This document shows positions 4,716-24,455 of a DNA stretch of 30,057 nt, in pieces. Source of the DNA: Folioceros fuciformis (Eukaryota); the NCBI GenBank assembly GCA_049999805.1, contig JBNGIO010006274.1, forward strand, positions 267,818 to 297,874. Direction: 5' to 3'. The notes under the pieces were generated by a model that ran no database searches, was not told the origin of the DNA, and worked only from the letters and a program-made list of their open reading frames with translations. Made by a program: the position numbers and the translations under genes. The first letter of the stretch is position 1; each line of letters opens with the position of its first letter.

Positions 4716-7700
4716 TCAGGTTACGGCAAGTTGAGGTGAAAAATCGATTAGACCTAGCTTATGCATGTGTTGGTAGTGGCGTAGCTTGGGTAGGCCTTTG
4801 GTTAATATGTCTGCAATGTTGTCCTTTGTTGAGACATAGGTAGCCTTCACTATGCCTTGCTCAACAACATCCCGTATGTAGTGATGTTGAATCTCGATGT
4901 GCTTCGTCTAGGCATGGAACTTGGGATTTGCAACAAGAGCCAGGGCTGACATGTTGTCACAGTGAGGGGCGTAGGATTTTCTCGCTTCACGTCGATATCG
5001 GCAAGAAAGGCTCTCTCCCACTCTGCGTCCTTTGTAGCATCGCTAAGTGATTTGTACTTTGCTTTAGTGGAGGAGAGGGCGATGGAGGCTGGCTTCTTGC
5101 AACTCCAGTTCACAGTTGCGGAAGACAAAAGGAAACAATGTGGGCTAAGGCTCTTTCGTGAGTCAGGGTCGGAGGCCCAGTTTGTGTCAGTGTATCCTAC
5201 AAGTGACAACTTCCCTGTGCCTTTGCATCTGTACGTTAGGCCATAGGTAAGGGTCTCCTTAAGGTAGAGGAAGACTCTTTTTACGGCTGCCTAGTGCGCC
5301 CTTCCAGGTGACTCTAAAAATTGTGATACTATGGAAATAGAGTACTAGATGTCGGGTCTGGTCCATCTGCTGACAAAGATATGGCTGCCCACAGCGTGGC
5401 GGTAGAGACTGATTCCATCTCCTTGGCCTCCTCTGTTGATTGCGGGCACTGATTAGCTGTAAGCTTGTGCCGATAGCATAGAGGGTGTTGACAGGCCTAG
5501 CTTGGTCTAACTTGAATCTCGCTAGTATTTCTTTGATGTACTTGTGCTAGTGGATGACCATGCTACCTTCAGCCTTGTTTTTAAGAATTTGCATTCCAAG
5601 GTAGAACCGGAGTTTGCCTATGTCTTTCATCTCGAAACGGGTGCTCAGTTGCTTCACCTCTTCTAGCATAGCTTGGCTATTTGCGGTGAGGATGAGGTCA
5701 TCCACATAGAGGGCGAGGAGGATGAAGTGGAGTCCCCGAGATAGCCTGTAAATGTTCCTATTTGCCAAACTTTGGACAAAAGAGACACTAAGCAAATAAG
5801 AGTGCACGGTAGTGTACTAGACATGGCCACTCTATTTGAGGCCGTAGATGCACTTCTTCTATCTCAATACTTTGTGTGGGAACTATTTGCTGACGTAGCC
5901 CTCGGGCTGGTCCATACAAAGCTCCTTGTTGTGTGCTCCGTAAAAGTATGTTGTGCACACATCCATCTGGTGCAGCTCTAGATCGATTTCTACGTATTGG
6001 GCTTGCACGACGGGGGAGAAGGTTTCTTGGTAGTCAAGTCCTTTGACTTGGGAGTAGCCTCGGGCTACCACACGGGCCTTGAAGTGGGTGACCTAACCTT
6101 AGGCGTTAAGCTTGAGCTTGAACGTCCATTTGAAGCTAATCAGTTTCCTTCCAAGGGGCGAATCGACTAACTCCTAGGTCTTGTTCTTCACAAGGTTTTG
6201 GTACTCATCCTCCACTGCGAGCCGCCACTTGGAGGATTCAAGGCTAGAGAAAGCTCGGGTGAGAGTGGTGAGCTCCTCTGGCAAGGTAGGTTTTGAGGTA
6301 TGTGCTGTAAAGGGTGGGTTGAAGGAGCTCCTAAAATCAATAGATTTGTAAGGAGGCTCAACCCACTATTCTTGTAGTGGGCGATGACAAGTATTGCGAC
6401 GTAGGCCAAGAGGGGGCCCAGCCTTTAGGAGGCGGCACCTCGTTGACGAGCAGCTTGGGTAGAGGCATGTCAGCAACAGTCTCATCTGGAGCGGGGGGAT
6501 CAACTGGTAGGGGATCCAGGGGCACTTCAGCAAATTGTTGATTTGTTGGAGGAGCAATTGTAGCATCTTCTCCCTCCACGTGTGGCAAGGGTGGGAGGTC
6601 ATTGTCCTCATCCTCGGAGTTAGTGTCCTCCAAGGCTGGTAGCAATCCTTGTCAAGCAATGATGTGGCCACAACTCCCTCTAAGGCTGGCCATGTGGGTT
6701 CCAGGAAGGTAATGCTACGGACCAGGATAATGCTGTGATCTTCAAGATCAAATAGTTTGTAAGCTTTCACATTCTCACTGTATCCAACCAGCACGAGCTT
6801 TCACAACCTATCCTCCAACTTTCGGTGCTTGGTCTTTGGTATATAGGCATAGGCCGTGGAACGTAAGACTCAAAGGTGGACGATGCTAGGTTTTTTATGC
6901 TAGAAAACCTCATATGGAAAACGCCCAAGGACAACACCAGTGATGAGTTGATTGACAATATAGGTCGCGCTCACAATGGCTTCTACTTAGAAGCCCTGAG
7001 GAAGGCCAGCCCATAACAACATGCTTTGGTTCATTGAGAGTAGGGTCTGATTTTTGCACTCTAAAACCCTGTTTTGCTGTGGGGTGTAGGGTACGCTTAG
7101 CTGCCTCTCAATATCTTGCTCCCATAGGAAGTCGTCAAAGGTGTTATTGACAAATTCTGTTCTGTTGTCGCTTCTCAAAATATTCAGCTGATGATATGTG
7201 TGTCTCTTGGCAACGGACAACCAGTCTCAGAAGTAGATGAACATATCACTCTTCAGGTGCATTGGAAGTCCATGAGTACCCACTAAAGTCATTTGTGTCG
7301 TGAGGTAGTAGCGTGCTCCACTTAGTGAGAGTTGTCCTTGAGATGTCAACATGGACTAACTCCAAGGTTGTGGTCTCCCTTTGGGCATGCTTGGGAAAGG
7401 GAAGTTCTTTCTACTTCGCCAACACGTAGGATTCGCACACAGGGAGATGCTTGAAGCACTTGAGTAGGGGCTCTTCATACAGGTCTTGTGACATCATAGA
7501 TATAAGCTTGTTTTTGTTAATGTGTCCCAACCTGGCGTGCCACAGAAAAGTTAGGTTGTCAAGAGATGACGGCAGTGCTCCAATTGCAAGGGCAGAAGGT
7601 TCACTCACGCTGGAAAAAGAGAGCCTCTACAAGCCGTTCTAAGGTGTGGCAATGAAGAGGCACAAGTTAGGATTTGTGGTCCTGAAAAAATAGCATGACC

Positions 7701-7829: not shown

Positions 7830-8724
7830 CGCAAGTGCCTTGTCCCATGATAGGAGGTGCCCACCTACAATCAATACATTCCTAACACTCAAAGTAATCA
7901 CAAGCTCCATGCACAACCAGCCCTGTTCTAGTCCCCAATGCGGGATAATCCCCAAGAACGTGCAAAACTACAAACCCGTATAGTGAAGTGATGAGACGGA
8001 TCATCTATTGGCTTAGAGAAATCCTCCACCTCCATACCTATGACCCACAGATCATGCAGCTCTTCCAGCAAGGGCTCCATGTACACGTCAAATTTTTTAA
8101 TGATGTTTGGGCCTGGAACAATGAGTGGCATCAACATGTGTTTAGGCTTTGTGGTTGCCCATGGTGGAAGGTTGTGAACAAACAATAAGATTGACCACAT
8201 TGATCTCGCTGTGGACTTGTGACCAAATGGGTTAAATCCATCTGATGCCAAGCCTAAACACACATTTTGTGGTTCACTGCCAAAACCATCTAAGGTATCC
8301 AACATTTGCCATGCGGAACTATCCGCCATCATTCCCATGTGCCCATCTGTACTTCGCAAGTGATGTCTACACTCCACAAAGGCGTCTCAGCCATAGCACG
8401 ACATCAGGTTGCCACAACTATTCCACAAGTGTTGTTTATCCCATTTAGAAGGTCAAGCATCACCTCTGCCTCCCTATCTTCTACGTTGGTGTTAGAAGGG
8501 CAATCACTCTCACTAGCATCTTCTCTTGACTGACCATCTTGTGAAGTTGTCATGTCGAACGAGTTCACTACGTTTTCCTCATTAAGCTCGTTGGCACTTG
8601 TGGATGAAATTCTGTGTCCGAGGACACAATGAGGGCCATGTTCACCTTCTATGTCGTTATAGTCCTAGGATTTGATCCCAAGGGAATGGTTCGTGTCAAG
8701 TTGTTCAAAATTTACAACTTCTAG
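7830..8724 (-). pseudogene. tnp2: CACTA/En-Spm Tnp2-family (Transposase_21-like) transposase fragment with internal deletion
   Basis: ADSSAW, VCLGLASDGFNPFG, SMWSILLFVHNLPPW, PGP, DVYMEPLLEELHDLW and, after a frameshift, GDYPA (7939-7950) are Tnp2 core motifs. An upstream acidic stretch ending in AETPLW (8374-8391) resembles the A..PLY motif. Confidence 0.9.
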
Positions 8725-8734
8725 ACTATTTATT

Positions 8735-8905
8735 GTTAGTTCCTACCCGGACGTACTCCACCACCATACCCAAGTCTAATACCATCGTCCCCAACTCTGC
8801 CACGGTAGGGAATTCCACCATCCCCGTAGTGGATTCAGCCATTGCGGTAGTGGGCCCCACCACCACCGTGGTGGGTGAACGTGAATGTTCACCACGTCCG
8901 TCCCG
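8735..8905. repeat. Degenerate ~21-bp repeats and small hairpins between the transposase and Copia #2
   Basis: Recurrent CCACCATxCCC and CGGTAG/CGTAGTGG units; GGTGAAC...GTTCACC hairpin at ~8874-8893. An open minus-strand frame (8726-8932) has heptad-like repetition. Confidence 0.4.
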
Positions 8906-8907
8906 TT

Positions 8908-10986
8908 CAGCTGAGATCTGGACACGCCTCAAGCAACTATATGTAGGGCAAAATATGGTTAGTGCAATGACTGCCTTGAGGAACTTCCAAAATTTGAGAA
9001 TGAGGGAAGGTAATCGATTCAGTGGAGAAGCACGTGAATACCTTCAGGATTCTAGCCTCAAGATTGGAAGGAGCTTCAAACGTTAGTATGACTGATGACG
9101 AAATGGTGATGAGGCTCATGCTCTCCCTTCCTGAATCCTGGTCTCATTTCGTGACATCACACACTACTCCTCAAACACAAGCGGCACTTCTAGCTCAGCA
9201 ATAGGGAGTAGACATGCCAATTATGTCCTTCTCACAACTTATTAGTTCTATGCTACAAGAGGAAGCTAGTAGGATGACTCACAGGTGAGTAGGCAAGCAA
9301 TAGGCCTTGTATACCTCTAATCAAGGAAGAGGAGATAGAAGATTTTCTCCAAAAGGAAGTAGTGGGAATTTTTCAAAAGCAGGCAGTTCGCAAGGAGTAG
9401 CCTCAACTATAAAGAAGACAAAAAGGACAGGTACATGCAATTGTTGTAAGTTACTTGGTCATTGGGAGCGTGAGTGTCGCAAAAAGCAAGCTGGAGTCCC
9501 TCGCAAGGAAGGATCCAGTGCTGCGACACATGTGGTGGTGAAGCAAGTAAACAGACCATCAACTTTGACAGTCGGGACAAGAATGTTTTCAGGTCCACTG
9601 TTGATTCCCACTTGTCTCTCTACCAAAGCCAATGTTAAACCCACATCAGAGTGGTATTTAGATACAGGTGCAACTGCTCACATTTGTTTTGATAGACATG
9701 CTTTCAAAACATATAGGTCAGTTCCAGATCAATACATTTACCTTGGAGATGATAGATCTCTAGTTGCACCAGGTCGAGGCACAATTGAGTTTTCAGTCCC
9801 ACCTAGCATCACATTAGTGCCAAAGGATATCTACAATGTGCCTAAGATGACTAGGAACCTTGTTTCAGTCAAGAGATTAAATGCTGATAACAACAGTCAC
9901 GTTGTTCTTACTAGAACATACTCTCAGATTGTAGATGCATTTGACCCTAGCAAAGTACTTGCATTTGGATTCTCTGACCATGACCTTTATCGTCTTGATC
10001 TTCATCGAGGAATAGCTGATACTAACCAGTCACCAGCTATTTCTTTAGCCTTTGCACAACAAGTAGCAAAGTCTAAGTTGTGGCATGCACGTCTGGGTCA
10101 CCCTCACATGGCAAAATTGCATAAATTGGCCGTGAGTAGCTTGTATCAAGATGGGCCCATTGGATCATTAGTTGATACTCCTCTATGTGAAGCTTGTGTA
10201 TTATCTAAGAAACACCAAGCAGCTTTCAAGAATAAAGCACCTTATCGTGCCTCAAATCTCCTTGAGCTTATACGTATAGACTTGTGTGGACCCTTATCTC
10301 AAGAGTCCATAGGAGGTGGGTGTTATTTTCTATTGTTTACTGATGACAAAAGTCGTTTTGTCACCACCTATATCATGAACAACAATAATGAATGTTTTTC
10401 CTACTTTAAGGAATACATTAAGTTTGATGAACGCTGGACAGGTAAACAGCTCAAGACACTTAGATCTGATAATGGCGGAGAATTCATATCTAATGAATTT
10501 CAGAACTTTTGTAAGGACAAAGGCATTAGTCGTGAACTCAAAGTTGTTTATACTCCACAGCAGAATGGAGTTGCAGAGTGTTTGAACCTTACTCTAAAGG
10601 AAATGGTTTCTTCTTTGGTGCATGATGCTATGCTGCCACTCCCTTATTGGGCTGAGGCCTTGATTACTTCAACTTATCTGCGCAATAGATTGCCAACAAG
10701 TGCAGTTGCAGATAAGATCCCTTATGAAGCCTTTACAGGCAGAAAGCCATCAATACAACGTTTGAGGACTTTCGATTGCCTAGCTTATGTCGTTATCCCT
10801 AAACAGAAGAGAGCTAAACTCTCAGGTGAAGCACGTAAGCTCCTTAAGCTAGGCTATACAGAAGGGATAAAAGCCTATAAGCTATATGATGTTCCATCTA
10901 ATAGAGTAATCTATGCTTGGGGTGTTACCTTTGATGAAACAAGGACTTGAGCTTCAGTGGGAGCTCATCCTATTTATACTAGACTC
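8908..10986 (+). pseudogene. gag-pol: Copia #2 gag-protease-integrase (ORF 9307-10950 is still open for 547 aa)
   Basis: AEIWTRLKQLY...LRMREG and LMLSLPESW (gag); CNCCKLLGHWEREC zinc knuckle; WYLDTGATAH protease; LWHARLGH/CEACVLSK; DLCGP, LRSDNGGEF, PQQNGVAE integrase; GYTEGIKAYKLYD SH3. Confidence 0.95.
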
Positions 10987-12242
10987 TGATGATGCAGAGA
11001 ACTCATTGGAGATTTCCCATTTGATCTCACAGACCATATGTGGACTCCACATGCTGAATAGGTCCTTGGAAAATGGTAGGATTTCTCTTTTTGGGAATTT
11101 CTAAGTGAACCCTGTGGTGAAATGGTTAAAAGATTAGGTTAGATTAGTAGCTAGATTAATGGTGAGGCGAGACGCGTCTTTGAAGGGTTGCTAGAATGAT
11201 CTGAGAGAAGGGATGGAATGATTTGAGAGAGGAGGGAAAGTGTTGAGAGGCACTGACCATTTTGGTAGTCTTGAGAGGTTGGTCAATTTTGGTAAGGGCA
11301 CCTAGTGGTGTCCATGGGACACAACCCCTATTAGGTCAGAACTAGGTTTGGGTCAAAGTTAGGGTTAGGTCAGAGTTAGGTTTAGGTCAGAATTAGGGGT
11401 GGCTTAGGTCAGAGAGAGATTGCTGGGTGTTTGATTGAGGCTAACCCTAATAGATAGAGATGGAGGTTTGGGCCAAGGTAGTATAAGAGGCTAGACCTAC
11501 CATTGAGGAGGGGGCTGTCTACGGTGTGATTTCCCTGGACCTTGGGTGCAGAACTCCTGGCTTAGGGCGCTGAGCTGGCTGAGACTAAACCAAGGTCCTG
11601 ATTTCCCTTGCCACTAGGGGAACGTGGAGGATCCCAAGACTGCCAAGATTCGTGTGGCCGGATCCGCAATAGCTGACCACCTTGCATGCTGGCTGAGGTG
11701 AGGTTGCAGGGCTATGAGCCAATGAGGCTACCCAGCCCTAGGCCTCGCCTCTGCGTTGAAGGCTGCAAGAGGGAAGGCTGTTGTGTTCCAAATTGCAGGT
11801 GAGAAGGGTTGAGTTGCAGATTTTGGAAGTGGAAGTGTTGAATTGAGGAGTTGAGCTGAAGTTGAGGTTCTCGTTCAACTGCGGAGGTAGCTAGCACTAG
11901 GTGCTGAGAGTTGGCGGCCAGACTTGGGGCTGGAGCCTCCTCTCAGCACTGAAGTGATTGATACTTGGAGCTAGAAACGAGGGCTGAAGACAATGCTGGA
12001 GTTCTCATTTTGTTGAGGCTGGGGTTGGTGTTGTGGTAGGAGTCGAAGACAGGACCAAGAATTCTGGTCTATTGCTGTAGCACTTGGTATATGCTAATAG
12101 ATAGGGTGAGATTAGGGGGATGTAGGTAACCTTGACATTAGTTCACTCCCTTGGGAGCGAATCATAAGACTGCAACGATAATAAGGGGAAGTGTGGCCCC
12201 TTGGTGGTTCTTGGGTGTGCAAGAAATCACTCCACACCATAG
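10987..12242 (+). mobile_element. ~1.25 kb solo LTR (probably Ty3/Gypsy) nested in the IN-RT linker of Copia #2
   Basis: Non-coding, G-rich insert starting TGATG at 10987, flanked by the direct repeat GACTC (10982-10986 and 12243-12247). It contains TATAAGA at 11482, and Copia coding resumes immediately after. The 3' terminus is imperfect (CACCATAG). Confidence 0.75.
11331..11413 (+). repeat. 17-bp tandem repeat (4 copies plus a partial), telomere-like
   Basis: TTAGGTCAGAACTAGGT / TTGGGTCAAAGTTAGGG / TTAGGTCAGAGTTAGGT / TTAGGTCAGAATTAGGG, then TTAGGTCAGA. Confidence 0.9.
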
Positions 12243-14187
12243 GACTCAGAATTCTAATGTATCTCCTGCAAAGGGGGACACACCAGCCATTGTTACAAAG
12301 TCAGAAGATGCACCTTTGTTGACTGACTCTGACCAACCCGTTATGTAGGACCTGCATCCTCATCAAGACATATTACCTGATCCCCTACTTGATAGTGAAA
12401 CATCAGAGCCTAAAGAGTTGCCAGATTCTGTTGATCCCACTTATGAGATTGCATCAACTCCTGTGCCAACCCCTGAACTTGCTCGTCATTATCCCACACG
12501 AGAATGGCGACCTCCTGACTTCTATAGTGCGCCTGATTTTTGTCCATCTTCTGCTCATATTCGGGCATATGCTGCTATCTCACTTGATCCTGTTGAACCG
12601 CAGTCTTATGCTGAGGCTTTGAGCATACCTGATCATCAAGAATGGAAAAAGGTCATACAGTCAAGATACGACTCTCTCATTGAGAATGGCACTTGGGAGT
12701 TAGCTAAATTACCTCTTAGCAGGAAGATGGTCTCATGCAACTAGGTGTTTAAACTCAAAGTCAAAGCAGATGGCACATTTAATAGGTATAAGGCTAGACT
12801 TGTACCAAGAGGCTTTTCACCAATTCCAGGTGTGGATTACTTGGAGACTTATGCTCCTGTGGTCAAGCTACCAACCCTACGAGCCATTTGTGCAATATAA
12901 GAATATAAGCATTTAAGAATTATGAGTTGGAGATGTTTAATGTCAAAACAACATTTTTGAATGGTAAGCTTGACACAGAGATTTATATGCAACAACCTCC
13001 TAGTTTTGAAGTAAAGGGGAAGGAGGATTATGTTTGTAAATTGAATAAAACTTTATATGGCTTGAAGCAGTCTGCCATGGCTTGGAATGCAGTGCTAAAT
13101 GCTGAACTTTTAGCTTTTGATTTCACCAAGATCCAATCAGATGGAAGCCTGTACGTTTACAACAAGAATGATATTGTGTGTTATCTAGCAGTATATTTAG
13201 ATGATCTAATTCTGTCCAGCAACAATCAAGCTTTCATCATAACTATTACAGATTTGCTGGCCACAAAGTTTAAGATGTCTAGACTTGGCCCTCTACAGAG
13301 TTGTCTTAGCATCTATGTACAGCGCAATAGAGAAAAGGGGTCATAACTCTTACGCAACCAAGATATTTGCTAACTAGCATAGAGTAGCTAGGTCTGAAAG
13401 ATGCAAAACCAAGTGCAACACCCTTACCTTCTGGTTTGAAGTTGAGTAATGGAATGTCACCTCAGACAGATGCTGAAAAAGCAAAAATGGTTCCAGTTCC
13501 TTCTAGACAAGCCATTGGTAAGTTGATTTATGCTGCTAATGCCACCCATCCATAAGTAGCCTTTGCAACAAGCTCTCTCTCACAATTTCTTGAAACTCCT
13601 GGTCAAGAGCATTGGACATGTGTTAAGAGAGTGTTTAGATATTTCAAAGGAACTCTCAACAGAGGCATTCAATATGTTATACACCTGGACAACAGCTTGA
13701 GCTTAAGGTCTATACTGACTCAGATTATGCAGGCAACATAGACCACTGAAAGTTAGTTTCCGGTTATGTTGTTAGTCTTGTTGGTGGGTCAATTTGCTGG
13801 ACGAGTAAGAAACAACCCACAGTAGCACTCTCAAGTACATAAGCTGAGTACAGGGTACTTACAGCAGCAACACAGGAAGTCATCTAGTGCACATTGCTAT
13901 TGAGTGAGATGGGTATAGTTTTACCAACTTGTACAGTGATTCGCACAGATAATCAAGGCTCGATGTTACTGGCTCAGAACCCTGTCTTCCATGCCAGAAC
14001 AAAGCATGTAGAGGTAGAATACCACTTCACTCGTGACCTCGTCAAAGCTGGAAAGATCAGTCTGGAATACATTCCAACACAAGAGAATCCAGCAGATATT
14101 TTAACTAAAGCTCTTGGAAAGGAGCTTCATGAAAGACATTTTAAACGTTTGGGCTTAGGAGACTCGTCGGAGCTCATAGGCAATTGA
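12243..14187 (+). pseudogene. pol: Copia #2 linker, reverse transcriptase and RNase H (stops and frameshifts)
   Basis: EPQSYAEAL, ENGTWEL, RYKARLV, VKTTFLNG, LYGLKQS, VYLDDL; YTDSDYAG, SKKQPTVALSS, DNQG, NPVFHARTKH, ENPADILTKAL. Confidence 0.95.
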
Positions 14188-14222: not shown

Positions 14223-15243
14223 CTAGCTACGGCGGCTGAAGGAAGAGCTCTCTTCCTCAGAATGGTCATTCAAGAAAGAACCAGAGCCAGAGTCAGATTC
14301 TCCGGATTGAGGACTGTCTTCATCTGTTTTGGACGAATCTGGCGTATGTGGACTGAACGGAGATTTGATTCTCTTCTTCTCTCTTTTTCTTGCTTGACCA
14401 GAGAGATAGTAGGCTACTAGAAGCTTCTTCCTCCATCCGTGTGGTAGACCCTGCCACAAGCAATTGGAGCTTAGAATGCTTCCTGCTTCATAGCTCAACA
14501 TAGTGAAGAAATGTAATTTCAAACATATCAGCAGCCAAAGCCAAGCACAAGCTTTCAGACTTGCAACTTACTAGAGGTGCTAACAAGGTGCCCCAGAAAC
14601 AGCCAACAGTTTTCAACCTTATGTGCTCCATAGTCAATTTGATGCAGCCCACATCAACGTTGTACCAAAGAGGGCTGCGTGGATGCTTGATGGAACCAAA
14701 TGTGACAATCTGTGTTTCCTCAGCCAGGCTTGGTGGGACAAGAAAGCTCAGATGTTGATTTTGGTCAGTCTCAAATTCCCAAGAAGGAAGTTTTCCACTC
14801 ACAGCTTTGGTCGGCGGAACCTGTCTTGCAACCTTAGGCGCCGTGCTGGTTGGACGAGGTGTTGAAGATCCTCCCATGGAGCTTTGAGATGCAGGCGGGT
14901 TCTTGCGGCGCTGAAGAATTCTTGTGGCGGCGCTCTGAGGGCTCCTAGGTCTTTGCTTCCTGTAGGCGCTGCTGCCTGTTGTTCCAGAAGACGTTGCTTT
15001 TCTCTTGTTGCAGGCAGCTGCTCCAGTGGTGGCAAACCGCCCTAGGGCGTCCCGTGCCTGGCATCGACGCTTGGTCGGCGCTCCGTCAGCAGAAGTATCA
15101 ATCTCGCAAAGCTCAGCTAGTTTCTGGTCCAAAAGGCTTATGAACAAGATGCTGAGGGCGTAAAGGAGAATAAAGATGGGAGCAAACCTATATTTAGGCC
15201 CCGATTTTGAGCTGTTATTGCACTCCATATCCAAAGATGCCAT
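14223..15243 (-). CDS. Antisense accessory ORF of Copia #2, unknown function; one stop or frameshift near 14490
   Basis: The 278-codon ORF 14488-15324 (first ATG 15243) and overlapping ORF 14223-14522 fill nearly all the space between the pol stop (14187) and the PPT (15369). Layout: hydrophobic 19-mer, basic low-complexity region, globular-looking domain, acidic Ser-rich tail. Confidence 0.6.
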
Positions 15244-15368
15244 GAAGAGGTGCTGGCGCAACGCAATGCTTACTCTGCAGCGGTGGCCGTTTGCGGATCT
15301 GAAGCTCAAGGGAGACAGTCTCACGAATAGCTCACGGCGGCTACGACTGTCCTTGAATCTTAATCAGC

Positions 15369-15377: not shown

Positions 15378-15380
15378 CAA

Positions 15381-15620
15381 TGATAAATAGTGCTGATAAT
15401 GATAAAAGGGTTTATGTTGTTAAGATAAGATATGTTGAGTTACGTTTACAATGTTTAAGTGACATTATATAAGAGTCATGGCTTAAGTGAACAACTACAA
15501 TGTTTCAGTTAGTTTAAGTTGTGTTTTATGTTTCATAAACTCTAATTCTTTTCTTGAACCAATAATGAAAATCTGAATGTTTTGATATAATTTCTTTGCA
15601 TTTACCTCCATAATTTGTCA
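15381..15620 (+). mobile_element. 3' LTR of Copia #2 (240 bp)
   Basis: TGATAAAT...ATTTGTCA terminal inverted repeat (7/8), TATATAA at 15466-15472, preceded by the PPT; sharp composition change at 15621. Confidence 0.8.
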
Positions 15621-15763: not shown

Positions 15764-16819
15764 CTAGTGTTGGGCCATGGTTAGGCAATGATGGTTCATG
15801 GCCATAGAAGCTTGAATTGGTATTGGCTCATGCGTAGTAGGTCCCACCGGTATTTCCATCCTATGGTTAGGCTCATGATGATATACATCATCGGTCGCAT
15901 CATCTTTCACAAGCATTAACCCGCGCACCATGTCGATACGCAGAGCAGCTCTAATTTCTGTTGTTCTAGCAAAGGTGGCCGCTAACCTGTTCCTACGGTT
16001 TTGTTTTTGCTCTGCAAAATTTACGTATAGAGGTTTTGAATTCATAGCCACTATTCGTCCATTCATTTCTCTTTTTGCACGATTGGCATTCTCGTAGTTC
16101 GAAAATGAGACAAATCCCACACCCTTACTCAAACCCTCTTGGTTTTTGAGTACCTGGCATGAGATTATCGTGCCAAAATGTGCAAACCACTCTCTCAAAC
16201 TATCATCATTTATGGTGTCGTCCAAATGCTTTATGTATAGGCTCACACCTCGATGAAGTTCCGCAAGCTCTACAGCTCTCTCATCTTTCGTTTGGGCTCT
16301 TGCAACATACAATACATTGTTATTCCACTTCTTTCCATTGAGCTCTGCAATGGCTCGAATGGCATCCTCTGCATGTTCAAAGTTAACAAAACCAAAGCAT
16401 CTTGATCTTCCATCATTGTCATGCATCACAATACTACTAGTGATGTTGCCATAAGGTGCAAAGATGTTTTGCAACTCCTCAGTGCTTAAGCTTTCAGGGA
16501 AGTTCTTCACGTATACATTGGTGAATATCTCTGGATTTTGAATGTTGTTTTCACGTCGAATAAATTTGGTCACAAACAATTGTTTGCCATTGAATAATTT
16601 ACCATTCATTTCCGTTATGGCACGTTCGGCATCTTCGTCCTCTTGAAATTGCACAAACCCAAACCCTTTAGATTGGCCTAAACTGTTGATGGTTACCTCA
16701 CATAATAAAATTGGCCCAAAGTTGGAGAATGCTTCATGGAGAATTGTGTTATCAATTGACAGGTCTAGACCTTTCACAAAAATCTTGGCAGCTTCGCTCA
16801 TCTCAATATCATTGTCCAT
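15764..16819 (-). CDS. PABP: Intronless polyadenylate-binding protein-derived ORF: three RRMs (PABP RRM2, RRM3, RRM4) plus an unrelated tail; no RRM1 or MLLE/PABC
   Basis: 351 aa from ATG 16819. KIFVKGLDLSID...GQSKGFGFVQF matches RRM2; FTNVYVKNF...GRSRCFGFVNFE...ARAQTKDER matches RRM3; LYIKHLDDTINDD...SKGVGFVSF...MNG...SKPLYVNFAEQKQNRRNRL matches RRM4. No internal stops. Confidence 0.9.
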   Translation of the reverse strand: MDNDIEMSEAAKIFVKGLDLSIDNTILHEAFSNFGPILLCEVTINSLGQSKGFGFVQFQEDEDAERAITEMNGKLFNGKQLFVTKFIRRENNIQNPEIFTNVYVKNFPESLSTEELQNIFAPYGNITSSIVMHDNDGRSRCFGFVNFEHAEDAIRAIAELNGKKWNNNVLYVARAQTKDERAVELAELHRGVSLYIKHLDDTINDDSLREWFAHFGTIISCQVLKNQEGLSKGVGFVSFSNYENANRAKREMNGRIVAMNSKPLYVNFAEQKQNRRNRLAATFARTTEIRAALRIDMVRGLMLVKDDATDDVYHHEPNHRMEIPVGPTTHEPIPIQASMAMNHHCLTMAQH

Positions 16820-16841
16820 ATTGAAATATAAAATTAAAAAC

Positions 16842-17042
16842 AAACCCTAAGCTAAAGGGTAGAAGAATATGTAGTAGCGATCACTCCTTACTTAGATAAA
16901 GATTCTTGAAGAATAATGTAGAGGCTCACAATTGAGTCCCTAGCTTGACAAATGACAAATTGCTTTCGATGGATGAGTAAGAAGAGGCCTTTGCTGCTTT
17001 CGATGGATGAGTAAGAAGGAGCCTTTGCTTTAGCCTATATAG
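16842..17042 (-). promoter_or_regulatory. Putative promoter/5' UTR of the PABP-like ORF: TATA-like box and telo-box
   Basis: Minus-strand CTATATAG at ~17035-17042, ~220 nt upstream of the ATG; AAACCCTAA telo-box at 16842-16850. Confidence 0.5.
16961..17028. repeat. 34-bp tandem duplication
   Basis: TGCTTTCGATGGATGAGTAAGAAG(AG/GA)GCCTTTGC x2, 2 mismatches. Confidence 0.95.
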
Positions 17043-17199
17043 AATTGCTAACAAAGCTCTTCGTAGAGATAGGAACACAAGATAATGATTGATGATAGTT
17101 CTTGGTCTAGCCAAATATATAGCTTGGAGGCTAACTTTAACTAGGCAATAGCTAATACAGGTATCCATAAACACCACACATTTCTAAATTTTGACATAT

Positions 17200-17770
17200 A
17201 AAATCTTTCTAATTTGAATTATTCACAGTAGATGGATTTATTAAATACTAATTTGAATTATTATTGGGTGGTCCATTTCTTAATAGTAATCTCTACTATT
17301 GTTGTTTATTGTCCACGGTTTAGTATTATTTTTATTATTACTCATTGCTTAGTTTTTAATACTCATTTCAATTCATATTAGTAGGTTCAACACTAATTTC
17401 ATCTATGATTGGTTGGTCCATTTTTTAATGCTAATTTCAACTAGTATTGGCAGGTCTTTGTCTTCCCACATATTAGAAGATCTCTAATTTTAACCAATCA
17501 GGGTTAATGGNNNNNNNNNNNNNNNNNNNNNNNNNNNNNNNNNNNNNNNNNNNNNNNNNNNNNNNNNNNNNNNNNNNNNNNNNNNNNNNNNNNNNNNNNN
17601 NNNNNNNNNNCATATTAGAAGATCTCTAATTTTAACCAATCAGGGTTAATGGATTTCTTAACTACTAATTTCATTTTATGGTGGATTCTTTTACTACTTT
17701 CAACTACTAATAGTTAGTGGATTTTTTTAATATTAATTTCAACTATCTATAATTATTGTTGGTCAAAATT
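17200..17770. repeat. AT-rich degenerate repeat array (approximate unit TTAATACTAATTTCAACTA..TTGGTxGGTCCATTT)
   Basis: Recurrent ACTAATTTC/CTAATTTCAACTA and GGTGGTCCATTT/GGTTGGTCCATTT motifs at irregular ~35-40 nt spacing. Confidence 0.6.
17511..17610. other. Assembly gap (100 N) flanked by an identical 42-bp sequence
   Basis: 17469-17510 is identical to 17611-17652. Confidence 0.98.
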
Positions 17771-18266
17771 TCTTGAAATAGCATTGATCGGTTCAAAACG
17801 AGAGCCATTAGAGGTCCTCATTTACGACAACCTTGGAAATTATGGGATTTTCTAATTATTAATTTCACCTGCTTGTTAGGTGGGTCTAAGGTTTAGGGTT
17901 GCCTTCTTAGCGAGGTCGATGCATATTTTCTTGCTTATTGTGCAAGTCAAAGCAAGTAGTGCGCTCAACATGCGTATAGATACCCATCTTGTGTTTTGTA
18001 TTATTGCGATGAGTAGATGGATATATAGGATGGTATTTATTTCACAAGTCCTCATATTGCGGCCATCTTGGGGACCTCACTTATATGAATGTGTCTGCAA
18101 GGCAAATGAGATTTTCATGCTAGTGAAAGAATAGAGTAGCGAGTCATCTTCTTAGATATATGGCCATCTTCCATGTTGCACCCAAGTCTCATATCCATAA
18201 ACCCTTTATGTATGAATACTAGTCACAAGTCCAACATCCTATAGATATCGTGTAGTGTTGTTGATC

Positions 18267-18300
18267 GTAGGAACACTAAGGTTGTAGGAACACTAAGGTT
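18267..18300. repeat. Perfect 17-bp tandem duplication
   Basis: GTAGGAACACTAAGGTT x2. Confidence 0.95.
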
Positions 18301-19210
18301 CTTAACACAACTTGGTGCTCAAGTGGATCACAAGGAACGAGGTAGGCTGCACTTAGCTAATCCTCATTCTCTAGATTGCACTTAGCTAAGTCCCATTATC
18401 TTGGAAGGAACATGTATAAAGTATTACCAATCAATTGAAGAAAGAACATGGAATTGTTGTTCATAACATGAAAGCTAAGACAATGATCTTCGATTAGTAT
18501 TGAACAATATAGGTATTAGAAGAAGAAGCTTCAGTTGTCAAGTTAAGTCAAATATTGTGTCATGGAAGAGGACTTGCAAAACTTACTACTGAAAATGTTG
18601 GTGACCATGGTGAATGAAACATGTACTATTTTCATGTTAATTAATATGACACGTAAATAATTTGTGATACAATGATTTATTTAGGGGACCAAGGTAGAGA
18701 AACCAAACTAATAGCCAATTATTACTGGTTGGTTAGGGCATTCTCACTCAGGTGGTTGTCATGATGCCTTGTGGTTGTGGGCCAATTAGAACTCACTTTG
18801 ATGGTGACCTAGCTTAGCACTAAATTGGCCAAACCGGTAGTTTGTATGCACTCTAGAAGTAGTTTGATTGCGTGGTATTGTGTAAAGGAATTATGTAAGA
18901 AAAGATCGGTTACTTCATGCTTCCATGTTTTTTTTTTATCAAAAGTTTGTTTTGGTTGTTTTGACCCTTTTTTACATAGTGTTTAAGTGTGAATACGACT
19001 TCATCTTATCTGTGAGTTCATCTTGGATTCCTATTTTTTTTAACAAAGTTTGTCAAAAGAATAGGAATCCATCTTAGCTTTGAGCTATACTACTAAGGTT
19101 TGGTGTAAGGGTAGACAACCTTTCATCTTTGCCTACAAGTGCCATTATTTGAGATACAAAAGACCCTTCCACATGTTCTACTTAGATCTTTGACTATCCT
19201 AATTAGTTGG

Positions 19211-20268: not shown

Positions 20269-23200
20269 ATGTCAGCAACTCCTCCTCCCCCACCTCTCCC
20301 TCCTGGCACTTACAATCCTGTCTTTACATCTGAGTTAAAAGAGAAGGACAGATTTACTGGTCAGAAATATGAGGTGTGCAGAGGTCGACTTTGTTGGCTA
20401 GAGGAGTCTGGGGCATTGTAGATGGCTCCATCCCTGAACCTCCTCGGACTGCCCTTAAGGGAGAGAGGGATAGATGGGATCATGCAAACAGCATAGGCAT
20501 AGCCCTTCTTGTCTCTGGCCTGTATGAGGATGTTATTCCTCCCATAGCATTTCTAACTAAGGCTAGTGAGATATGGTCACAATTAGAGAGCCAGTACAAG
20601 GTTAGTAATGTCCTTAAACTATGTGCATTACACACGGAGTGTTATGGACTAAAAATGCGAGAAGGAGACAAAGTTCTTGCTCACACCAGCAAACTTAGAC
20701 ACCTTCGAGCCCAACTTACCTCTCTTGGCACTGTGATGGATGAAGTGGACGTGATTGCTCAGCTACTCACCGGCCTGCCACCCATTTACCAAAGTTTTGT
20801 ATTTGCACATAATGTCCCTATCCGACAGAATATCGCTGCCGGTGCTGCAAGGAGACAAGTCACTATCACCTTAGACGAGGTGATAGGTGCACTCTTCTAG
20901 GAAGAGCAGGGCAAGCTCATGTCAGGGTTTGGAAAATCCAAAGCTAACAGAGTTCGAACCGCTTTCCGTGGAAGAGGGGCACAAAAAGACAAGATGCGGA
21001 TGTAGTCCTCATACCAGGGAAACAGAAATGAAGGTCAATGCAATGATGCAGGGCCTTCCACAAAACGCACTGAAAACTGTAACTGGTGTGGCAAACCTTG
21101 GCATTGGGCTAATGAATGTAGGAAAAAGAAAGCCGGGGAGCCACGCAAACCTTCTTGCTCTACTGTTAGTGTTGTTGTGTGTGACAAGCCTGCAGATTCC
21201 AATAAGCTAGTAGTTAAGATTCTAACAGTCTGCTTGTCTACCTTAACAGGGGATGAAGCAGCCTGGTACCTGGATTTTGGGGGCTATAACCCATATATGC
21301 AGGGATGAGTCCCTCTTCACATCCCTAACTCCCTCTTCTAGTATAGAGAGAGTGTACTTAGGTGATGAACGTAATACCACTAGCCTGCAGATATTAGGAC
21401 ATGGTTCCTATATGTTCATGCTTAGTGATGGGTCTACCTTAACTCTGACAGAGGTTTTATATGTGCCTAGTATGGCCAAAAAAGTGCTCTCACTAAGTGG
21501 ACTTCTCAAGCTCAGAAGCTTCCAGCTGACAGCTGAAGAAGGCTCATGTTGCTTCTCCCGAAAGGACTCACCCTCCGTATGTGTGTTCAAGGCTTTACCT
21601 GAACATGACCTTTACTGTCTTGACTTCACAGCCTTGCTGGGGGAAAGCATCAAGCCCATTCTACAAGTGCAGGAAACCTTTCCGCCAAACAGCAGTCTAT
21701 ACTCTGGCATGCATGGCTTGGCCATTTGAATTGCAAAGCTTTAGCATCCCTCAGGCTATCGTGAGCCCCTTCCTACTCACCTCAAGGCACTTACTCTTTG
21801 TGAGACATGTGCCCTTGCTAAGCAGAAGGAGCAACCCTTCCCAACAAGCCCAACTCGCAGATCTTCCCAACCCCTAGAACTAGTGCATGCTGACATATCT
21901 AGTCGTCAGACTATTCCTTCACCATTACAGACGATTACACAAGGTATACTTGGACATTCCCCATGAAGAGGAAAAACGAGACTTTCCCTTTGTTCCAAAC
22001 TTAGCTAGCCACGGTGCAGCACCAAACTAGCTACCTCCTAAAGATCTTTAGATCTGACAATGGCACAGAATTTGTGAATCAGTCCTTCGAAACCCTCTTC
22101 ACCACACAAGGGATCATCCACCAATTAATCGTGCCTTATACGCAACAAGAAAATGGCGTTGCTGAAAGGAAAAATCAAACCTTAATAATCATGACCCAAG
22201 CGATGCTATTGTGGTTAGGCCTCCCATCCCCTTACAGGGCAGAAGCAGTGGTCACCTCAACTTATATATTAAATATGTGGCCCACCAGCTCACTCGTTCC
22301 TAACACAACACCGTTCGAGCTGTTCTGGAAACGCAAGCCTAGCCTCCTTCATCTTCAAATTTTTGGCTCTAAAGCCTATGCATGTAAAGGCATAATACCT
22401 GCAGATAAACAACGGAAGTTAGAGAATCGCTCAAAGCGCCTTATTTTTGTGGATTACAATGAAACAGTAAAGGCATATAAGCTAATTGATCCAATTTCTA
22501 GGCAACCTGTCCTTGCTAGAAGTGTCACATTTTTGGAATCCTTACAGTTTGCCCCGTTGAGAGATGAACTATCTAACCCTTTCGAGCAGCCAGATGATTC
22601 TAATGACATAGTCTCTTGTCTTTGTATCCCTTGGATGTTGGTGGCATTGCCCATAATACACCAACAGATAATCCAGGACCAGATCCTGTTAATCCAGGCC
22701 TTGTTGCTGATGGCAATGTTCATAACCTGCCACATCTCTTGGCACCTGAAGCAGACTTGAACCATTCGAATTATGTTCCAGTTCGATACGATGTAGGAAA
22801 TCTAGAGGACGACTTGGGATTTTTAGATAATCTTGATGCACAGTTAATGGATGACATACCTAATGCTGTTGATGAGCTCCCTCAGCCTGACCTAGTTGTA
22901 GTTGAACTAGCTCAAGACGCTATTGAAGATGCTGGCCCATGTCGCTCTACAAGACACAGACCTTCCCCTTTCGGGTGGAGTGAACCTCCATACTCTAGTA
23001 TTGACTTCAGACATCATGCCGCCTCAGTAGTTTCCTCTCCTCCAGATGTGCCTCCAGAGCCAACTTCTCTTACAGAAGCTCTTACTGGACCAGACAAGGA
23101 CAAATGGAAATTCGTTGTTGATGACGAATACAACAACTGTATTAAAAATGGTACTTGGCGTTTGGTTCCTAGGCTTGCAAACAGGAAAGCTATAACCTAT

Positions 23201-24455
23201 AAGTGGGTGTTTAGCATAAACTTAATGCACAAGGACACATAGCATGTTACAAAGCTAGGCTGTGTGCAAGAGGATATACCCAGGTTGCTGGCTTGGATTA
23301 CCAAGAAACGTTTTCTCCAATTGTACGTGCTCACTCCATCCAGATTATTTTGGCTCTTGCTGCGGAGTATGACCTGGAATTGCAGCAAATGGAAGTTTGC
23401 ACAGCTTTTCTCCATGGTATTCTTGAGGAAGAACTGTACATGGAGCAGCCAAAAGGCTATGTAGACCCTGCACACCCTAATCATGTATGTCAGTTAATCA
23501 AATGCCTGTATGGACTAAAACAGAGTGCAGAACGCTGGTACAAAAGGTGTGATACTGCCTTGAAGTCTCTGGGTTTCACACAATGCAAAGCTTATTCGAA
23601 TGTATATATGTTTCAAGATGGCATGTGTCATCCTCTACCTATGTCATCCTTGCACTTTACATCAATGATGCAATCCTTGCAGCCAGTAACCCTGCAATCC
23701 TGTCACATGTGAAGACCTTGTCAAGGAACACCTTCGAAACGACGGACAGTGGTGACCTACTATTTTGTTTAGGAATCCAGATTTTAAGTGTTAGATCAGA
23801 GGGGCTGCTAATCATCCATCAACACAAGTACATAGCAAAGATTTTACACAGGTTTAATATGACACAGGCCCATCCAACTACTACTTCAGGTGCTGTAGGC
23901 ACGAAACTCACAAGATACGAGTCTCTAGTGATAGAGGCTAATAAGCAGGACATGCTTGATGTGCCATATCATCAGGCTGTTGGCAGCCTGATCTTCGTCA
24001 GCAACTAGACAAGACCAGATGTTCAGCTCTCGGTTAATACTATCTCACAATTCCTAGATAATCCAGGATGTGCGCATTGGACAGCTGTGAAAAGAGTCTT
24101 CCGCTATCTTAAAGGCACACATTATTTTGGTCTATGCTATAGGCGTAGAGGACAGTCGAACCTTGTGCTTGAGGGGTACACGGATGTAGATTGGGCCTCC
24201 GATAGTGACTCACGCAAGACTCTCTCTACATATGCTTTCCTTTTAGAACATGCCACCATCAATTCGAGCTGTAAAAAGCAGACAAGTATTGCCCTGTCCA
24301 ATATAGAGGCCGAATATAAGTCCTTAACGGATGCTACGAAAGAAGTGGAATGGGAGCGGTCCTTCTTACATGATCTTGGGCAGACACAACTTGGTCCTAC
24401 TCACCTATACTACGATAATCAATCTGCGATTGCTCGTGTTGCCAATCCTCGCTTC
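20269..24455 (+). pseudogene. gag-pol: Ty1/Copia #3 gag-pol, decayed and truncated within RNase H (no PPT or 3' LTR)
   Basis: ATG 20269; WGIVDGS, ASEIWSQL, LKMREG, LLTGLPP (gag); CNWCGKPWHWANEC knuckle; WYLD..A.TH protease; LWHAWLGH/CETCALAK; FRSDNGTEF, ENGVAERKN; KNGTW, YKARLCARG, LYGLKQS, LYIND; GYTDVDWASD, DNQSAI..ANPRF, then an abrupt end. Confidence 0.95.

Follow-up and report, generated by a model that had tools for sequence, protein, structure and literature searches.

Plant class II PABPs, those of the PAB2/PAB4/PAB8 type, are described in PMC4252990 as carrying four RRMs, a linker, MLLE and eight introns, and the same account traces these eight introns from moss to the class II genes. 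It further describes how, in plant PABP, RRM1 alone suffices for the binding of eIF4G, how the sites for eIFiso4G and eIF4B overlap there, and how PAM2 partners require PABC (PMC4252990). Trimmed and retro-copied members of the family are already known. Arabidopsis thaliana PAB1 (At1g34140) and its Brassicaceae orthologues are without RRM1 and PABC/MLLE and consist of RRM2-3-4; in the account given in PMC4252990, PAB1 is highly divergent, occurs in a few Brassicaceae only, has no known function, is predicted not to bind eIF4G, eIFiso4G, eIF4B or PAM2 partners, and is a recent duplicate of the class I genes PAB3/PAB5 that keeps introns in a pattern of its own. PAB6 is without PABC. Human PABPC5, according to PMC12873600, is an RRM-only cytoplasmic PABP without linker and MLLE that keeps four RRMs at about 65% identity to PABPC1, and when overexpressed it still opposes Pumilio-directed repression, an effect that the authors credit to the RRMs. 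PABPC3 and mouse Pabpc2 and Pabpc6 are described as functional paralogues from intronless genes (PMC12151635), and the mammalian intronless PABPs are given as full length, PABPC3 being 92% identical to PABPC1 (PMC12873600).

The locus analysed here lies in a window of 30,057 nucleotides (the whole stretch of DNA that was analysed) and holds an ORF related to these proteins. Its architecture is not new: a preliminary description overstated the novelty of a domain-trimmed PABP, given that PAB1 is described without RRM1 and PABC (PMC4252990) and PABPC5 without linker and MLLE (PMC12873600). The ORF has the RRM2-3-4 content of PAB1, with RRM1 and PABC both absent, the missing linker and MLLE of PABPC5, and the intronless state of PABPC3, Pabpc2 and Pabpc6. 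Nevertheless, it differs from each of them. PAB1 keeps introns whereas the ORF is without four canonical ones; PABPC5 keeps RRM1 and is closer to PABPC1, whereas the ORF is without RRM1 and shares only about 50% identity with any PABP; and the mammalian intronless PABPs are full length, whereas the ORF has diverged far more and is cut at both ends. Its origin was probably independent of PAB1, to which it is likened here through the published description of that gene. Class II PABPs are its best matches, at 49-52% identity among the matches listed, and share with it the RRM2-RRM3-RRM4 order and an RNP1 of RRM3 that carries a plant-type Cys. Canonical PABPC membership fails on two defining features, RRM1 and MLLE. 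We hold it slightly likelier than an even chance that the locus derives, as a processed copy, from a plant cytoplasmic PABP of class I/II type and has evolved very fast, but as coding sequence, and hence is, or was until recently, a gene. The features that make up the locus, in window coordinates, are as follows.

15764..16819, minus strand: PABP-derived RRM2-RRM3-RRM4 ORF; 351 codons, ATG to TAG, stop codon at 15764-15766
16556..16789, minus strand: RRM2, residues 11-88; the most altered domain, with 23/35 deeply conserved sites kept
16286..16522, minus strand: RRM3, residues 100-178; the best kept domain, with 24/25 deeply conserved sites
16004..16246, minus strand: RRM4, residues 192-272; 26/33 deeply conserved sites kept, and a 2-residue in-frame insertion
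15767..15952, minus strand: C-terminal tail, residues 290-351; without significant likeness to the PABP linker or MLLE, pLDDT below 50 from residue 296
16820..16864, minus strand: remnant of the last strand of RRM1, a weak in-frame likeness early in canonical exon 2, interrupted by TAG at 16847-16849

From stop to stop the frame runs over 15764-16846 (360 codons), the second longest in six frames of the whole window (548, 360, 358 and so on). The domain content was observed directly. Against Pfam the ORF matches RRM_1 (PF00076) in three stretches (E 8.4e-61, 202.2 bits against a gathering cut-off of 20.7). The best solved-structure match of ORF residues 8-289 is residues 127-421 of yeast Pab1 (6r5k_D; E 1.6e-67), and residues 92-177 of human PABPC1, its RRM2, align with ORF residues 4-90; the three domains are therefore RRM2, RRM3 and RRM4 of PABP. 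In tblastn searches with seven PABPs these domains are orthologous one by one, at E 1e-76 to 6e-96.

The searches for the missing parts agree with this assignment. PF00658 (PABP/MLLE) is absent among the 11 Pfam families listed for the ORF at E<=0.1, and tblastn with seven full-length PABPs (E<=10) found neither the body of RRM1 nor MLLE in the 30 kb; apart from the locus itself and the RRM-to-RRM cross-matches inside it, these searches returned one 29-residue match. That match (E 0.006), at 23455-23541 inside the reverse transcriptase (RT) of a copia element and the sole other one below E 0.1, was judged spurious. When the C-terminal parts of 11 PABPs were searched against the window for linker and MLLE, a single match fell near the locus, at E=32, and an apparent in-frame likeness to the moss linker beyond the ORF stop proved not to be significant in these separate C-terminal searches. 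All that is left of RRM1 is the remnant listed above, about 15 weakly similar codons broken by the stop.

Within the domains, the aromatic residues of RNP1 and RNP2 are all present, but the Asn of RNP2 is replaced by G in RRM2 and by H in RRM4, and two beta-2 surface residues of RRM2 are changed as well. The changed residues of RRM2 (the RNP2 Asn and the two of strand beta-2) lie on what we take to be the adenine-contacting sheet of the PABP-poly(A) crystal structure. The RRM3-4 linker, which precedes RRM4, has 11 residues fewer than its class II counterparts. An AlphaFold2 model gives three complete RRM folds, with pLDDT of at least 90 for 219/351 residues and below 50 at residues 1-7, 90-96 and 296-351; it was built on a 25-row alignment, and where homologues are aligned such confidence does not tell a gene from a pseudogene. 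Overall, these results uphold most of what had been reported of the ORF from its letters, namely an intact frame of 351 codons with three RRMs (on the minus strand, which had gone unstated), a start about 11 residues before RRM2 (the first strand of which begins at residue 12), the identity of the RRMs and the absence of MLLE, the shortened RRM3-4 linker, and a tail with nothing significantly PABP-like from about residue 290. The claim of intact RNP1 and RNP2 motifs stands for the aromatic residues and not for the two replaced Asn residues. At position 16202, the third base of codon 206 on the minus strand, all contigs of run X1 have C while the window and run X2, from the same sample, have A; the C would turn Asp into Glu, and an allele or a difference between copies are both possible.

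The intron evidence is central to the origin of the copy. A profile scan of metagenome contigs gave 80 PABP loci, including three, L058, L067 and L046, on contigs of plant genomic DNA whose exons match Vitis PABP2 at up to 82-89% identity. All of these contigs (3/3) contain the IFIK and SCK introns named in the preliminary description, and L058 has GT..AG introns after Vitis PABP2 residues 85/86, 125 (IFIK), 345 (SCK), about 371, 400 (RLQ) and 427. The breakpoints seen in gene models at 85/86, about 370, 400 and 427 match these genomic introns; two further 'boundaries' at 280 and 323, taken from the single gene model P0094, are contradicted by the genomic contigs and were withdrawn. PABP and the ORF stay colinear over residues 125, 345, about 371 and 400, and the ORF thus reads through four canonical intron positions, for all of which the GT/AG sites were confirmed in one contig, L058. 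Because four conserved introns are absent together, copying of the ORF from a spliced mRNA is the best explanation, and a processed, mRNA-derived origin is well supported; the retro-derivation proposed earlier from IFIK and SCK gains two further positions.

Homology to PABP starts at about 16864, some nine codons past the canonical exon 1/2 junction, and ends near ORF residue 285-290. On the 5' side, public plant gene models that begin in exon 2 are instructive: in five (P0045, P0054, P0056, P0059 and P0068) the exon 1/2 junction, at residue 86, is where a foreign N-terminus is attached, and three begin at Met106 (P0037, P0043 and P0063, one of them a Physcomitrium isoform), so that RRM1-less isoforms are predicted in several plants. 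Such models make a source transcript without exon 1 possible; chance 5' truncation or a later deletion explains the 5' edge equally well. On the 3' side, no poly(A) run or flanking direct repeat was found at the locus, where the copy lacks its 3' part. Since the homology stops at about residue 290 and a repeat abuts at 15620, the loss of this part accounts for a poly(A) tract and target-site duplication not being seen.

The divergence of the ORF is as marked as its trimming. Its identity to plant PABPs lies at 50-54% in all comparisons and at 50-53% over RRM2-4, where animal PABPs reach 49-50%; Vitis PABP2 is 76.5% identical to its moss, 73.6% to its lycophyte and 79.4% to its rice counterpart, and 59-60% to those of animals. 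In a collection of 5.8 billion proteins, matches of the 'near' length class reach 39-51% identity (best 120 of 1902) and those of the 'longer' class 33-52% (best 120 of 2874), and among the matches listed in these two classes no protein is closer to the ORF than 52%. A scan of metagenomes with the ORF alone gave 79 pattern matches, 0 of which were confirmed. In a quick maximum-likelihood tree of 38 rows the end branch of the ORF measures 1.88 against a median of 0.13, and in a quick tree of 29 rows restricted to RRM2-4 it measures 1.3 against 0.099; the end branches of class II PABPs are about 13-14 times shorter. Both quick trees place the ORF inside the land-plant group of class I, class II and progenitor PABPs (SH-aLRT 96-100). 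The first sets it within angiosperm class II (SH-aLRT 100), and the second leaves it among class I, class II and bryophyte PABPs with no finer placement; as its place differs between the two, no parent class is named. Camellia PABP-like proteins (779-1052 aa, without MLLE and with a short RRM3-4 linker) were considered as relatives and dropped, as they do not group with the ORF in the tree. These models, P0242-P0246, have two PABP-like units each; in P0242, the one model aligned, the first unit has the shortened linker, and P0242 and P0246, the two of these five models placed in the tree, fall within eudicot class II on a branch 0.6 long.

How far a sequence so diverged could have kept its frame by chance was addressed by a neutral simulation, substitution-only and started from the ORF, with 4000 copies per identity level. 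The copies without a stop numbered 708/4000 at 90% amino-acid identity, 126/4000 at 80%, 18/4000 at 70%, 3/4000 at 60% and 2/4000 at 52%, counts that indels would cut further; the decisiveness of the simulation rests on a change of about 30% or more since the parent, which is itself an estimate. Against class II PABPs the ORF has three indels (-2, -11 and +2 residues), all in frame. Moreover, deeply conserved sites are kept at 81/105 (77%) and class-II-only sites at 17/33 (52%), a difference with a Fisher p of 0.0077 that is not overwhelming (the class II state being at least 90% fixed at all sites tested, and 'deep' sites being also conserved in bryophytes, a lycophyte and animals). The open frame at high divergence, the in-frame indels and the retention of deep sites together argue that most of the divergence accumulated under coding constraint, in this copy or in a direct ancestor, and that purifying selection probably acted on the lineage leading to the ORF. 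The loss of 12 of 35 deeply conserved sites from RRM2 points to relaxed constraint on part of the protein. This evidence concerns the lineage leading to the ORF and says nothing firm on the present-day life of this copy; within that scope it supports the earlier remark that the ORF is not a simple pseudogene.

The alternative that survives best is that the locus is dead, either a processed pseudogene or a young duplicate of some diverged relative that functions elsewhere, with a frame left open by chance and no functional product; we consider it unlikely though by no means negligible. It fits a setting of decayed copia, CACTA and LINE-like sequence, a homology cut at both ends, and in-frame stops just outside the ORF: besides the one at 16847-16849 upstream, four more fall within 70 codons after 15764. 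The eroded sites of RRM2 favour it too, as do the absence of the protein from the protein collection and of any relative above 54% identity among the matches listed. A copy silenced for only 10% of amino-acid change would be stop-free in 708/4000 neutral simulations; however, the divergence from every known PABP is far greater than 10%, and the preferential retention of deep sites (81/105 against 17/33) and the frame of all three indels (3/3) speak against death as the main explanation of the sequence.

The region upstream of the start codon, which bears on the same question, contains two features.

16820..17165, minus strand: ATG-free leader, 346 nt upstream of the start codon; start context CAATATGG
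17034-17043, minus strand: TATA-like TCTATATAGG, by consensus resemblance only

Positions -3 and +4 of the start context are A and G. The leader was noticed post hoc; by chance, an ATG-free stretch of its 346 nt occurs in 59/20000 shuffles, in 21/2343 tiles of the window and in 0/485 GC-matched tiles. Such a leader would be unexpected in dead DNA and counts as a fourth argument for coding constraint. A tandem pair of units of about 31 nt lies at 16957-17040 on the minus strand, in the putative leader or promoter between the TATA-like motif and the ORF. In run X3, one 185-nt contig is identical to 16705-16889 and spans the ATG, and nothing was found on the other 6.3 kb compared, repeated transposon sequence included; X3 is labelled RNA by guess and may be DNA, and the contig is a weak hint that the ORF is transcribed. 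Of the four runs compared, X6 gave nothing, and none of the runs listed for the locus is on record as RNA.

The DNA runs X1 and X2, both of one sample, contain a second related sequence, about 87% identical over 16463-16892, the existence of which also suits a dead duplicate. Its 513-nt contig matches 16463-16620 with 13 differences and 4 gaps and 16637-16892 with 36 differences, and between these aligned blocks 97 letters take the place of 16 in the window, a net gain of 81 nt that is in frame; the likeness reaches 73 nt upstream of the ATG. The second copy may be a paralogue or a homeologue, and the live copy could be either of the two.

Introns in large plant genomes can be very long. This allows a reading in which an ordinary full PAB gene contributes the ORF as a single large exon, its RRM1 and linker/MLLE exons lying outside the window or across transposon-filled introns, and the start of homology about nine codons past the canonical exon 1/2 junction would suit it, as would the upstream TAG, which sits within CTTAG|G after a pyrimidine-rich run and is readable as a splice acceptor. 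We nevertheless regard it as very improbable. Four canonical introns of RRM2-4 are absent, unlike in the class I, II and III genes as described in PMC4252990, neither RRM1 nor MLLE occurs within 13 kb upstream or 15 kb downstream of the ORF, and its stop follows a 62-residue tail unrelated to PABP. The X3 contig, of uncertain nature, is likewise unspliced across the putative acceptor to 16889.

The ORF lies among transposon remains; 9/17 of the larger window frames scanned match transposon families, and the following elements and repeat surround it.

8676-13346, plus strand: copia gag, integrase and RT, in an element from 8676 to about 14200
7928-8386, minus strand: Tnp2 transposase piece (CACTA), by family match
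6366-6800, minus strand: SH3_retrovirus piece, by family match
20373-23712, plus strand: second copia, by family match
15379..15620, no strand assigned: repeated sequence bounding the 3' side of the locus

Since these elements are split over different frames they are read as decayed, in line with the earlier statement that all flanking transposons carry stops or frameshifts, with one exception: a copia protease-integrase frame of 548 aa at 9304-10950 (plus strand) is still open, the rest of its element being broken. The best matches of this frame are 30-44% identical, full-length polyproteins falling outside the lengths searched. Contigs of other copies of the repeat diverge at 15379 and 15620, which places it directly against the 3' side of the locus. 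That the ORF is a host-gene fragment carried and spread as a passenger of a transposable element (an LTR-retrotransposon chimera or a Pack-MULE, CACTA or Helitron capture) is the least probable reading, for although the ORF adjoins this repeat and the copia element at 8676 to about 14200 and the sample contains at least one other related copy, the ORF is not enclosed by an LTR pair or terminal inverted repeats (the repeat search found only a 42-nt scaffold duplicate and a GC-rich inverted repeat at 416-682), its strand is opposite to both copia elements, and the neighbouring 17400-19100 has low contig depth, which is not copy number, and few diverged contigs.

Several other observations concern the neighbourhood. 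Directly downstream of the ORF and on the same strand, 14488-15363 (minus) is a frame of 291 codons with no Pfam family, covered by many diverged contigs; it is probably not a gene but repeat or LTR sequence. A run of 100 N at 17511-17610, some 700 nt upstream of the ORF, lies between identical 42-nt copies (17469-17510 and 17611-17652); contigs of X1 and X2 join 17494 directly to 17641, so the gap and one 42-mer look like a scaffolding artefact. The first 1000 positions of the window are a GC-rich (61%) stretch of GGCA/GTCA-like short repeats, unlike the AT-richer remainder, and include a 53-nt imperfect inverted repeat with arms at 416-468 and 630-682.

If the locus is a processed PABP copy that evolved as coding sequence, the copy would start near the beginning of canonical exon 2 and end just past RRM4, and its product would be a soluble protein of 351 aa with three folded RRMs and a disordered tail of about 60 residues. 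Judged from its residues, this protein may contact single-stranded RNA chiefly by RRM3 and RRM4, its well-kept domains. As for high-affinity binding of poly(A), the aromatic RNP residues are kept and several conserved residues of the RRM2 sheet are replaced, and with the surface of RRM2 altered, specificity for poly(A) is probably relaxed. The preliminary description had assigned contact with eIF4G to RRM2. In plants RRM1 alone is described as binding eIF4G (PMC4252990), and RRM2 is the most eroded domain of the ORF; the link to eIF4G is therefore probably lost. With RRM1 and PABC absent, docking to eIF4G, eIFiso4G, eIF4B and PAM2 proteins would be lost together, and the likeliest activity would be RNA binding by RRM3-4 uncoupled from initiation factors and PAM2 proteins. 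The suggested effect as a competitor or protector of tails may follow from such an activity, and the experimental parallel for it is PABPC5.

A bolder form of this account makes the ORF a selected, lineage-specific retrogene, an RRM2-3-4 'decoy' PABP that would sit on poly(A) or A/U-rich RNA, uncoupled from eIF4G/eIF4B and from PAM2 partners such as eRF3 and deadenylase adaptors, and retune translation or decay, having arisen independently of PAB1. Its targets would be a subset of mRNAs, possibly transposon or viral RNAs of a transposon-rich genome. We regard this form as doubtful. Were it true, loss of RRM1 and MLLE would be a recurrent evolutionary solution in plants.

The significance of the locus depends on whether the copy is live. 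A dead copy would be a processed pseudogene of the ordinary kind whose surviving frame is unusually long. A live one would be the second plant PABP reduced to RRM2-4 and of independent origin, by way of retroposition where PAB1 came by DNA duplication, and such recurrence would hint that plants profit from an RNA binder uncoupled from eIF4G and PAM2 partners. A live copy would further provide a natural separation-of-function allele for RRM3-4 acting alone.
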